From the NCBI RefSeq assembly GCF_003334255.1, contig NZ_QOWU01000111.1: a DNA stretch of 4,153 nt; one strand, 5' to 3'. The translations under genes were made by a program, and so were the position numbers. Each line of letters begins with the position of its first letter. Position 1 is the first letter of the stretch. This stretch comes from Escherichia coli (lineage in GTDB: Bacteria; Pseudomonadota; Gammaproteobacteria; Enterobacterales; Enterobacteriaceae). Positions 1 through 3,305 of the stretch are shown here, in pieces. The notes under the pieces are model-generated. The model searched no databases and was not told where the DNA came from. It saw only the letters and a list, made by a program, of their open reading frames with translations.

Positions 1-114
1 ACGCGAGGCATCGTCTTAACGAGGCACCGAGGCGTCGCATTCTTCAGATGGTTCAACCCTTAAGTTAGCGCTTATGGGTTCAAGTCCCCGATGGCGGTCC
101 ATTATCTGCATCAT

Positions 115-298: not shown

Positions 299-655
299 GT
301 GTTGATTGAGTGTTTGTTATACGGTCTAATGGTTTTTTCAGCATTAAATATTTATCATTCATATGGTGTGGGTAGAGTGAATATTGATGAGGCGTCGGGG
401 TGTTTCATCCTTAGGCAGCGTATTGATATAGTCAATGCAGAACGAGCAAAGGCCTTCAGCCGTTTGACAGTTTTGTTCTGTACTCCTGATCGTCTTTCGG
501 GAAGAGACGTTATTATTCTGAATAGTGATGCTATACAGAGGGTTTGCGATGAGTTCATGGTGGCTAATTCAGAATTATTTGCTCTTGTTCAGGAGTACAA
601 CAGAATAGCCAGGACCTGTGGTATGGATGAACTTCGGATTACTCATCTGGGGTAG
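299..655 (+). CDS. hypothetical protein (118 codons as drawn; true start uncertain, candidates GTG299, ATG329, GTG377)
   Basis: Open frame from the six-frame track ending at TAG 653-655. No convincing Shine-Dalgarno in front of any candidate start. 6 of 11 Arg codons are AGA/AGG (3 AGA, 3 AGG), directly beside a tRNA-Arg(TCT). AT-rich promoter-like stretch 250-298 upstream. No domain recognised by eye. Confidence 0.3.
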   Translation: MLIECLLYGLMVFSALNIYHSYGVGRVNIDEASGCFILRQRIDIVNAERAKAFSRLTVLFCTPDRLSGRDVIILNSDAIQRVCDEFMVANSELFALVQEYNRIARTCGMDELRITHLG

Positions 656-735
656 ATACATATCTGGATTATCACCGGTTACGGTAAAAAGTGATTGCTT
701 ACTGTTTTTGTGAATGGCATTGCAGCAGCCGGATA

Positions 736-822
736 ATGTCAGTGCTGGCTGACGGTGTGCTGGTGGCGGGTGTGGTGGTTGCTGCTTTCCCGTTGCTGAA
801 AAAGAAAACGCCAGACTGTTAG
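736..822 (+). CDS. candidate small hydrophobic peptide, 28 aa (MSVLADGVLVAGVVVAAFPLLKKKTPDC); frame is open back to GTG691, which would give 43 aa
   Basis: ATG 736, TAG 820-822. One uninterrupted hydrophobic stretch of about 17 residues followed by KKK, typical of small single-pass membrane peptides (type I toxin-like or leader-like). GC-rich, E. coli-like codon choice. Only a weak SD (GGAT/CCGGA) upstream. Below the ORF-track length cut-off, so found by reading. Confidence 0.2.
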   Translation: MSVLADGVLVAGVVVAAFPLLKKKTPDC

Positions 823-1047
823 CCGGGTATCAGTTAGCGGGAGAAATTTTTAAATACTTCACAATTCAGGCGGTTGACTGTTGTCTGGTTTGCGGGGAGT
901 TTGTTAAAAGAAACTGGCATGGTGAATCCCCCTGTGCGGAGGGGCAATCAGCGAGTAGGTATATGGGATAATCGCGGATTCAGGTGCTGGTACTGAATTC
1001 ACCGGGAGGCACCCGGCACCATGCAATGGCACATAGCGCCACTCTCC

Positions 1048-1083
1048 AGCCCCTCTCCGGAGGGGCTGTTTATATTGATTTTG
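1048..1083 (+). terminator. Rho-independent terminator candidate, plus-strand orientation
   Basis: Perfect 8-bp GC-rich stem AGCCCCTC (1048-1055) / GAGGGGCT (1060-1067) with 4-nt loop TCCG, followed by GTTTATATTGATTTTG. On the minus strand the same hairpin is followed by GGAGAGTGG (no U tract), so it looks unidirectional. Confidence 0.5.
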
Positions 1084-1102
1084 TCAGATGTGAGTAAACT
1101 CC

Positions 1103-1438
1103 TTATGGACTTTGTTGTTTTAGCCCATAAGGACATATTTGCAGAGTGCAACGGTTATTAAAGCATTCATTCAATACGTTATCTGTATTTGTAGGGCATT
1201 CCTGGCTGTTTTTGATTAAATTCCAGAATGTTTTATTGAATGGTACTACGTTGTAAATGGTTACAGGCAGCACTTTGTTATTGAGCATGATGCCTGTGTG
1301 AGTCAGTGTAAATATACTTTCAGGAGGTAAGAAAGCATCCGATTGATACCAGATTATTAATTTTATTTTACTCCATATGACTGAAAAAGATATTCCGCAT
1401 GATGGCTGGATAACTGTATCAATCACAATCCACTTCAT
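1103..1438 (-). CDS. hypothetical protein, 111 aa, AT-rich moron-like gene convergent with the late operon
   Basis: Only long ORF in a roughly 30-35% GC block (hand count of subsegments) where the plus strand is littered with stops in all frames. SD AAGGA about 6-7 nt upstream of the ATG at 1438 (minus-strand reading AAGGAAACTAA-ATG). Cys-containing C-terminal segment ([26 protein letters not shown]). No family recognised. Confidence 0.4.
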
Positions 1439-2042: not shown

Positions 2043-2130
2043 TAAAAAGTGAGCCAGTCAAATGGAAGGTATCGTTAAACTCACCGGTAGTGTCAGTGGG
2101 TCGTCTGAGACGCCTGCATGAGTTATCAGA

Positions 2131-2160
2131 GCCATCAGTACTTAACTGGTGGCTTTTTTA
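2131..2160 (+). terminator. Rho-independent terminator immediately upstream of the holin gene
   Basis: 8-bp stem GCCATCAG (2131-2138) / CTGGTGGC (2146-2153) with one G-U pair, 7-nt loop TACTTAA, followed by TTTTTT (2154-2159). Confidence 0.6.
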
Positions 2161-2410: not shown

Positions 2411-2414
2411 AGTG

Positions 2415-3305
2415 ATGAATAAAAAATATGAACTGGTTGTTAAGGGGATAAATAATTACGGGGATAAGGTTACTGTTACTGTGAAGCCGGAAGGTGACGG
2501 GCAAGCGTCGCTGTTGTTGCCAGATGTGGCGATTAGTCTTGACCGTACTGAAGGTGCCACGCTGGAGTTTTACGAAGCTGAGGCGAAAAAGCAGGCGAAG
2601 CAGTTTTTCATGGATGTTGCTGCCGGGTTATGTGAAGGGGATGGTCCGTTGCCGGAAAAGCGCCCCGTAATTTTAGAGGCGCAGGATGTGTTGATAACCT
2701 ACAAAGGAAAGCTACCGGGAAGAATTACTTGTTCTCTGAAGATGCCGCCGTCAACACTGCGGTCAGAAAAAGATGATGTTGAATCACGTATTGAAAAACT
2801 GGAGAGCTACGTCGTTGAGCTGAATAAGAAATGGTCGATATTGGTGCCTTCTGGCGATGAAAAGCAGTTTGCTGCGTTTGACGATTATTGTCGGAAAGTG
2901 ATGAGCAGAAATCTCGCAGAGTGTTTCAGTATTCATAATGATAATTTCAGTGACCCGGAATGGGAGTGTAACCGGCCATCCTTTGTTGTATCCGGTGATG
3001 CTGGGAAAATAACCATCTCAGAAAATGGGAAAGTAACACCTCCATCGCACCAGCACAGTGAGGAGCTCATTGAATTTGCCATTGATTACCTGAAGAACAA
3101 TAAAAAGCAGGGGCTGATGAAGCGCGTTGGCCGTTGCATGGGATATCTGCAGGTAGCTGCTGAGATTGAAGCGCTGGCCAGTGGTGCTGATAAGGATGCA
3201 ATTGTGCGGGAGGCTCTTCTTCGTGATTTTAATACTCCACCCTTTAAAAAAGTGCCGGCTTACTGGCTTCATCCGGGGCTGACTTATCTTAAAGTGCGTA
3301 TTTAG
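2415..3305 (+). CDS. hypothetical protein, 296 aa, inserted between holin and endolysin (function unknown)
   Basis: Long clean ORF with ATG at 2415 (GTG at 2412 also in frame). SD GGGAGAG at 2401-2407 sits 7 nt upstream and overlaps the last codons of S, whose TAA stop (2408-2410) lies between SD and start, i.e. translational coupling. No signal peptide or TM segment and no catalytic motif recognisable by eye. Stop TAG 3303-3305. Confidence 0.7.
   Translation: MNKKYELVVKGINNYGDKVTVTVKPEGDGQASLLLPDVAISLDRTEGATLEFYEAEAKKQAKQFFMDVAAGLCEGDGPLPEKRPVILEAQDVLITYKGKLPGRITCSLKMPPSTLRSEKDDVESRIEKLESYVVELNKKWSILVPSGDEKQFAAFDDYCRKVMSRNLAECFSIHNDNFSDPEWECNRPSFVVSGDAGKITISENGKVTPPSHQHSEELIEFAIDYLKNNKKQGLMKRVGRCMGYLQVAAEIEALASGADKDAIVREALLRDFNTPPFKKVPAYWLHPGLTYLKVRI

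Follow-up and report, generated by a model that had tools for sequence, protein, structure and literature searches.

What is the GC-rich, hairpin-rich stretch near the start of this Escherichia coli sequence, and does it encode a small membrane protein, a small RNA (sRNA) or both? A preliminary description, made from the letters alone, had left these choices standing for positions 688-1083 and had proposed a covariance search and RNA folding as checks. We analysed the whole 4,153-nucleotide (nt) stretch, referred to below as the window, which is part of the late region of a lambdoid E. coli prophage. The covariance search returned the STnc100 sRNA family (Rfam RF02076) at positions 888-1077 on the plus strand, with a score of 132.4 bits (E = 4.5e-30; gathering score 47 bits) over model positions 1-206 of 206, the full length of the model. 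The Rfam scan of the window gave no sRNA family besides STnc100 at E ≤ 1. The sRNA reading was right, and the name missing from the preliminary description is STnc100, in the form described as EcOnc05 and STnc100_4.

The match extends to the individual allele. Over positions 888-1067 the window has the same sequence as STnc100_4 of E. coli O157:H7 EDL933, compared through the supplementary sequence of PMC5331693, and both primers of the STnc100_4 northern probe match the window, at 945 and 1030. In EDL933 this RNA was northern-positive, with 1329 reads per kilobase per million in RNA-seq and a ribosome coverage value of 0.58 (PMC5331693). Positions 917-1067 are also identical to EcOnc05, the copy in prophage Sp4 of strain Sakai, and the preceding 70-nt leader carries three mismatches. 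EcOnc05 gave a peak in Hfq cross-linking and analysis of cDNAs (CRAC), with 5/5 passes, and a northern band of ~222 nt (PMC4104026 Table S2); the CRAC peak lies at +32..+140 of the Sp4 copy. Because of these identities, the exact allele is a known, expressed, Hfq-bound RNA, and window 847-1083 on the plus strand is almost certainly one copy of an STnc100 sRNA gene. The element is real but already known, and it is no new kind of element.

STnc100_4 and EcOnc05 hold the same place in the lambdoid late region as the window copy. They part from it after the terminator stem, where the window has GTTTATATTG followed by the 3′ end of an iraM homologue, whereas the Sakai and EDL933 copies have TTCTTATGGAC followed by a convergent terminator of the anti-sRNA type. 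STnc100 is a multi-copy family of E. coli, Shigella and Salmonella prophages, in which it occupies the ‘moron’ slot between the Q antiterminator and tRNA genes on one side and the lysis genes on the other. Copies can also stand in tandem: one IMG/VR contig (L188, 5013-7865) has four, each with a different linker and three of them ~260-270 nt apart, while phage vB_EcoS-733R4 (L009, 1119-1776) and Escherichia albertii (L020) have two each, 467 nt apart.

Scaffold, linker and terminator

For comparison we drew on phage records, IMG/VR contigs and genomes, which gave 148 copies in 134 distinct contexts, with 85 distinct cores among the copies with full flanks. Scanning genome contigs with a 16-base pattern, GCATGGTGAATCCNCCT, gave nearly all chance matches; the useful ones were from E. 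albertii (L020 and L021), and the scan yielded no Salmonella copies. Within the window, the RNA has the following parts.

917-1024, plus strand: four-way-junction scaffold, from the fold together with covariation
917-924/1017-1024, plus strand: helix P1, GCAUGGUG/CACCAUGC
929-933/940-944, plus strand: helix H1, CCCCU/AGGGG
951-954/972-975, plus strand: helix H2, in a region that varies between copies
976-983/993-1000, plus strand: helix H3
1002-1006/1012-1016, plus strand: helix H4, CCGGG-AGGCA-CCCGG
1025-1046, plus strand: linker of 22 nt (AAUGGCACAUAGCGCCACUCUC followed by C) between scaffold and terminator, hypervariable between copies
1047-1083, plus strand: intrinsic terminator, stem 1047-1055/1060-1068 of 9 bp (7 G-C), loop UCCG

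The inverted repeats picked out in the preliminary description are present, CCGGG/CCCGG at 1002-1006/1012-1016 around the loop AGGCA and CCCCC...GGGG at 928-932/941-944, as is the elevated GC content (0.556 over 900-1059 vs 0.34-0.49 in the flanks). The GC-rich structured stretch is real, but it had been given a start at 880, and the conserved module begins near 847. Folding bore out the structure, with z-scores of -2.3 for 888-1083, -3.2 for 917-1083 and -2.0 for 861-1083; shuffled sequences folded as well in 4/200, 1/200 and 6/200 cases, respectively, and for 917-1083 the minimum free energy (MFE) structure equals the centroid. P1, H1, the variable H2 region, H3 and H4 are common to 51 distinct scaffold versions.

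When 20 diverged copies were placed on the window's fold, 90.7% of cells were paired, against at most 48% with the partners slid, and 0/500 shuffles reached the observed values. Changes on both sides of a pair occur at 7/8 pairs of H3 and 3/4 pairs of H2. The variable helices are maintained by compensatory changes, and the consensus structure of a multi-branch junction plus terminator is kept across copies. P1, H1 and H4 were near-invariant in this sample, partly because the search pattern fixed parts of them.

The covariation also bears on a protein reading of the same bases. RefSeq lists a partial ‘hypothetical protein’ pseudogene here, and the GC-rich stretch could on that account encode a minus-strand protein:

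904-1032, minus strand: 42-amino-acid (aa) open reading frame (ORF) overlapping the sRNA

Antisense coding sequences of 130-400 nt are likewise called over homologous copies (E2348C_RS28255, ECs_0817; L001 4308-4433). Scaffold lengths, however, include 114, 125 and 133 nt, so that the indels are not multiples of three, the variation obeys base-pairing rules, and it is the plus-strand RNA that has been detected experimentally. Because of the non-triplet indels and the compensatory helix changes we judge ORF 904-1032 spurious, and a protein encoded there is very improbable. The antisense calls look like artefacts of GC-rich structured RNA.

Downstream of the scaffold the sequence changes character. 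At least ten unrelated linker alleles sit on near-identical scaffolds, and in the window's fold ACAUAGC (1031-1037) and CUCUC (1042-1046) of the linker are exposed. Bearing on the linker are PasD1 and PasD2 of enteropathogenic E. coli E2348/69, which are Hfq-dependent hubs with many partners in RIL-seq, a ligation and sequencing assay of RNA interaction, and whose chimeras fall within ~50 nt of the 3′ end, in the terminator and immediately before it. The PasD segment equivalent to the linker has the predicted seed and the RIL-seq chimera positions, and in EcOnc13, the PasD-type RNA of Sakai prophage Sp3, it has a Hfq-CRAC peak. Because the PasD seed and chimera sites and the EcOnc13 peak fall there, we take linker 1025-1046 to be the likely seed. 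In the MFE structure of the window, part of the linker pairs with the leader (GGGGAGU at 894-900 with ACUCUCC at 1040-1046). This pairing is not conserved, and leaders pair with their native linkers no better than with reassorted ones (Mann-Whitney p = 0.15).

The terminator hairpin, which is kept in most copies, stands where the preliminary description had put it, with a stem of 9 bp in place of 8 bp. The T-rich tract proved to be interrupted, not continuous: the stem is followed by GTTTATATTGATTTTG.

The leader and the 5′ end of the RNA

Two features precede the scaffold.

847-916, plus strand: conserved module leader, comprising the TCACAATTCAG block (859-869) and a promoter-like motif
881-910, plus strand: the promoter-like motif, with a -35-like TTGTCT at 881-886, TG at 902-903 and a -10-like TAAAAG at 905-910

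Homology with the Sakai Sp4 copy begins at 847, upstream of which 46/70 positions differ. The promoter-like motif was found by comparing copies; a generic promoter scan omits it because its -10 lacks the final T. A -10-like TA(A/G)AA hexamer is kept in 55/58 distinct upstream sequences, in 50 of them 7-8 nt before a conserved G that corresponds to window 917. TG at -15/-14 is present in 34 of the 55, and nearly all of the 55 have a TTGxxT -35-like element at a spacing of 17-19 nt. The leader may serve as promoter DNA, belong to a longer form of the RNA, or do both.

Where the RNA begins is answered differently by two sets of data. The 5′ ends of PasD1 and PasD2 estimated from RNA-seq (NC_011601 positions 1060260 and 741157) fall exactly on the G equivalent to window 917. 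A 5′ end at G917 therefore predicts a primary transcript of ~160 nt. The second set comes from northern blots, of this allele and of EcOnc27 (also sRNA103), an STnc100 copy ~100 nt 3′ of stx2B whose published probe matches its linker. The northern sizes of ~222 nt for this allele and 235/247 nt for EcOnc27 lead to a 5′ end near 850-863, with the conserved G ~55-70 nt downstream of it. A start at 850-863 would coincide with the TCACAATTCAG block and lie near the homology edge at 847. Short (917) and long (850-863) forms of the RNA may both exist.

These sizes are at the centre of another account, in which the RNA is processed from longer read-through transcripts that arrive from the late promoter, stx, the tRNA genes or the upstream ORF of the DUF3927 membrane-protein family, and is an sRNA of the 3′-untranslated-region (UTR) type, with the TCACAATTCAG block near 859-869 marking the cleavage site. 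The northern sizes of EcOnc05 and EcOnc27 do put the 5′ end near the module edge, a conserved promoter for that upstream end would fall in sequence not common to the copies, and the EcOnc27 CRAC peak spans -40..+39, i.e. the equivalent leader. The CA/AUU in the block, moreover, loosely resembles an RNase E site. On the other hand, a terminator-like hairpin after the tRNA gene argO precedes the module in Sakai Sp4, and read-through should therefore be limited. For PasD1 and PasD2 the start is the conserved G itself, 3′ of TTGACT-N17/18-TAAAAA; the promoter-like motif is conserved in 55/58 upstream sequences while the spacer sequence varies between copies; and an RpoD signal in chromatin immunoprecipitation with exonuclease digestion (ChIP-exo) has been reported at the Salmonella LT2 STnc100 copies (PMC10794520). 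We regard processing as possible but on the unlikely side, and it is compatible with the function that we propose for the RNA below. The earlier suggestion of a 3′ UTR-derived sRNA thus keeps the northern sizes, which imply a start 55-70 nt upstream, on its side, and has the RNA's own promoter-like motif and the PasD ends at G917 against it.

The RF02076 model start, at window 888, agrees with neither 917 nor ~850-863, and a revision of the family boundaries is probably needed. Model positions 1 to ~29 correspond to the promoter-like motif. Separately, the northern probe listed for EcOnc13 in the supplement of PMC4104026 matches the leader of an Stx1-type STnc100 copy (Stx, Shiga toxin), not the PasD-type locus in Sp3; the probe label may be wrong, and because of this match we set the probe aside in placing the 5′ end.

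Prophage relatives and the proposed role

Three groups of RNAs help to place the window copy. EcOnc27/sRNA103 is also Hfq-bound and shares the scaffold, the leader architecture and the terminator type; it differs in its linker (AGUAUACAGAGAUUAGGCAUAUACCAAG) and its H2 region, in having stx2B and not DUF3927 upstream, and in the convergent AsxR gene. When EcOnc27/sRNA103 is overexpressed, fimZ and espA transcripts reportedly go up, and variants in the vicinity of the stx2-linked copy are reported as predictors of haemolytic uraemic syndrome (PMC12711010).

PasD1 and PasD2 (with EcOnc13 in Sakai Sp3) share with the window RNA the GCAUGGUGAAUCC start, the four-way-junction plan, the GGGAGGC hairpin and the terminator, and they also lie directly 3′ of a DUF3927 gene with the promoter-like motif in common. 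Against STnc100 their scores are 38-41 bits, short of the gathering score, compared with 132 bits for the window, and the PasD seed CCUUGUGAG is not in the window. The PasD loci are without the 55-nt TCACAATTCAG leader, and the DUF3927 stop codon is ~40 nt from the RNA start, as opposed to 94 in the window. Judged by their sequences, PasD and the window RNA are sister groups and not the same RNA; a 2026 preprint already proposes a common origin of PasD and STnc100.

The third group, AsxR and AgvB (RF02703 and RF02702), shares the moron slot, Hfq binding and the division into a conserved part and a variable targeting part. With STnc100 copies these RNAs make up convergent pairs, described in the literature as ‘dyads of Hfq-binding sRNAs’, and in Stx phages Rfam places AsxR or AgvB on the minus strand directly after STnc100. 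They differ in lying on the opposite strand, in their length of 51-60 nt and in their unrelated sequence, and the window has no match to RF02703 or RF02702 at E ≤ 1 in Rfam.

The explanation that we favour overall, and consider likely, is that the window holds an STnc100 copy acting as an Hfq-associated sRNA with a terminator role. The RNA would act in trans by base pairing in association with Hfq. Its targets would be set by the variable linker 1025-1046, and the proximal face of Hfq would find its site in the terminator and U tail. Stability would come from the closed, structured 5′ domain, whose first base is paired if the start is 917. In a lysogen the terminator would stop transcription that is not Q-modified from entering the downstream late-region genes, and Q-modified polymerase would read through it, a step that rests on established lambdoid Q biology. 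For the Hfq-dependent trans base-pairing mechanism taken by itself, which for this allele is drawn by analogy, we lean somewhat towards acceptance.

A number of points weigh against this explanation. The pattern behind the covariation sample fixed parts of P1, H1 and H4, where free variation was impossible. The terminator is followed by a U tract with interruptions (GUUUAUAUUG), weaker than in most other copies, and the two 5′ ends, ~850-863 from the northern sizes and 917 from PasD homology, compete. No target, phenotype or direct base pairing has been published for this allele, and the whole STnc100 family is listed as of unknown function. When the linker was scanned against the window on both strands, the best non-self hit had -26.6 kcal/mol, within the range of shuffled linkers (mean -23.2, minimum -31.0 kcal/mol). 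Lastly, the scaffold is conserved far beyond the needs of pairing, which hints at something besides carrying a seed, e.g. protein binding.

If the trans role is taken away, what is left is a cis-acting terminator or insulator at the moron junctions of the late operon, with the RNA as a stable by-product. Without exception, the element is placed after the late promoter and before the lysis genes, and a strong hairpin closes it; it is often back to back with a second, convergent terminator (64/134) or in tandem arrays, and the literature has no validated target for any STnc100-type copy. A terminator, however, needs no conserved 108-nt four-way junction with covarying helices, and the RNA is abundant and Hfq-bound. 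The many Hfq-dependent RIL-seq partners of PasD1/2 and the reported change in fimZ and espA transcript levels on EcOnc27/sRNA103 overexpression also speak against a purely cis-acting element, which we consider unlikely.

A more speculative extension of the sRNA explanation is that STnc100 and PasD form a recombining ‘seed-cassette’ platform, in which an almost invariant scaffold with its own promoter carries exchangeable linkers that reassort independently of leader and neighbours, so that each prophage copy retargets an Hfq-bound chassis. The conservation of the scaffold would then reflect a second binding partner, and the exposed CUCUC would be an anti-Shine-Dalgarno seed. We offer this tentatively and think it rather doubtful in its entirety.

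The small ORF, the neighbouring genes and what the copy means

The other features of the window, in order, are these.

115-191: tRNA-Arg gene, the sole tRNA called by ARAGORN and Rfam
299-655, plus strand: 118-aa ORF of unknown function (PHROG 2873, E = 1.7e-70)
691-822, plus strand: ORF read as a decayed DUF3927 (TciB-like) membrane-protein gene (Pfam PF13064, PHROG 1470)
1103-1438, minus strand: convergent, full-length homologue of IraM, the RpoS-stabilising anti-adapter (NCBIfam NF007393, 162 bits, cut-off 121)
next in order, after the iraM homologue: DUF1737-like ORF, a name borrowed from the annotated homologue in phage vB_EcoS-733R4, followed by the holin gene, a 297-aa ORF and the endolysin gene
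2128-2156, plus strand: terminator-like hairpin of 12 bp with a T run, ~40 nt 5′ of the holin start at 2195
2412-3305, plus strand: the 297-aa ORF between holin and endolysin (PHROG 1085, unknown function)

The preliminary description had pointed to a hydrophobic peptide upstream of the structured stretch, and its ORF coordinates were borne out: translation from GTG691 to the stop at 820-822 gives 43 aa, and the in-frame ATG736 gives 28 aa (MSVLADGVLVAGVVVAAFPLLKKKTPDC). Residues 2-43 match positions 7-53 of the 53 in Pfam PF13064 (DUF3927; E = 1.4e-26), the ORF matches PHROG 1470 (‘TciB-like’) at E = 1.5e-11, and its RefSeq annotation is DUF3927 family protein (WP_001438304.1). It is the C-terminal SRIMSVLADGVLVAGVVV..PLLKKK segment that resembles the family. 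Full-length relatives upstream of other copies are ~52 aa long with two hydrophobic segments, and their alleles have pairwise ratios of nonsynonymous to synonymous substitution (dN/dS) of ~0.2-0.6, consistent with real coding genes. Compared with a full-length allele, the window allele lacks 10 nt and 5 nt in two deletions and has its ATG changed to AGT; the first hydrophobic segment is replaced by IAYCFCEWHC, and the second segment and KKK are kept. The ORF thus fails the full DUF3927 architecture of ~50 aa, two hydrophobic segments and an ATG start. It also differs from the arrangement in Sakai Sp11, where a TciA/TerB-like gene and then a small annotated coding sequence (168 nt, ECs_5731) lie upstream of the RNA, in having no such preceding gene; only the last bases of a tciA-like gene are recognisable in the window. 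The idea of a small membrane peptide was right as to the family, but this copy, without its first segment and ATG, is best read from its sequence as a decayed DUF3927 moron remnant. The literature on TciB and DUF3927 held nothing relevant, with no paper testing the ‘TciB-like’ database label.

A structured RNA beside a short ORF whose one hydrophobic segment is followed by KKK could suggest a type I toxin-antitoxin or similar toxic-peptide system; the preliminary description had likened the ORF to type I toxin-like or other small membrane peptides. The ORF is, however, a truncated allele of a two-segment family, the RNA lies on the same strand with no overlap, and the Rfam scan of the window found no type I antitoxin RNA family at E ≤ 1. 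Among the 134 contexts a DUF3927 gene lies upstream of the RNA in 54 (both PasD loci included), Stx1B in 9 and Stx2B in 10, from which the pairing of DUF3927 and the RNA is frequent but not obligatory. In other phages this RNA comes after stx1B, stx2B or a tRNA terminator, so ORF and RNA are separable. Judged by strand, overlap, RNA-family matches and these contexts, a toxic-peptide system is hardly credible here, and ORF and RNA are probably not functional partners.

On the other side of the RNA, the stop codon of the iraM homologue lies 20 nt past the end of the T-rich tract (1083), and the gene fills the spot that an AsxR/AgvB-type anti-sRNA holds in many relatives. An IraM gene is found downstream in 27/134 distinct contexts and a back-to-back terminator of the anti-sRNA type in 64/134. 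Some Stx2a and Stx2c phages likewise have this IraM gene 3′ of their stx2-linked STnc100 copies. Further downstream, hairpin 2128-2156 is a second candidate barrier to transcription that is not antiterminated, and related prophages have a YdfR-family gene or pseudogene at the place of the 297-aa ORF.

At the upstream edge, argN, the tRNA-Arg gene that precedes argO in related prophages, is present as its 3′ half only (window 1-101), and the first ~70 bases have no match to the O104:H4 or Stx2a copies. ORF 299-655 gave zero matches in Pfam, NCBIfam and PADLOC searches and is unannotated in the otherwise identical O104:H4 RefSeq record. PADLOC, which covers anti-phage defence, gave zero hits for the DUF3927 remnant, the IraM homologue, ORF 299-655 and the 297-aa ORF. 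Window 600-1300 is 100% identical to prophages of O104:H4 and other strains and is matched in 2859/5426 complete E. coli genomes, 870 of which hold at least 80% of the query.

The family is thus very common, with more than half of complete E. coli genomes matching the region, yet genome annotations miss the RNA and put a spurious minus-strand pseudogene over it, and they list the decayed DUF3927 remnant as an intact gene. STnc100 adjoins Shiga toxin genes, yet no copy has a validated target, and the anatomy of a scaffold with a variable linker indicates where to mutate. If the seed-cassette platform were true, each prophage copy would retarget the same chassis to a different host RNA.

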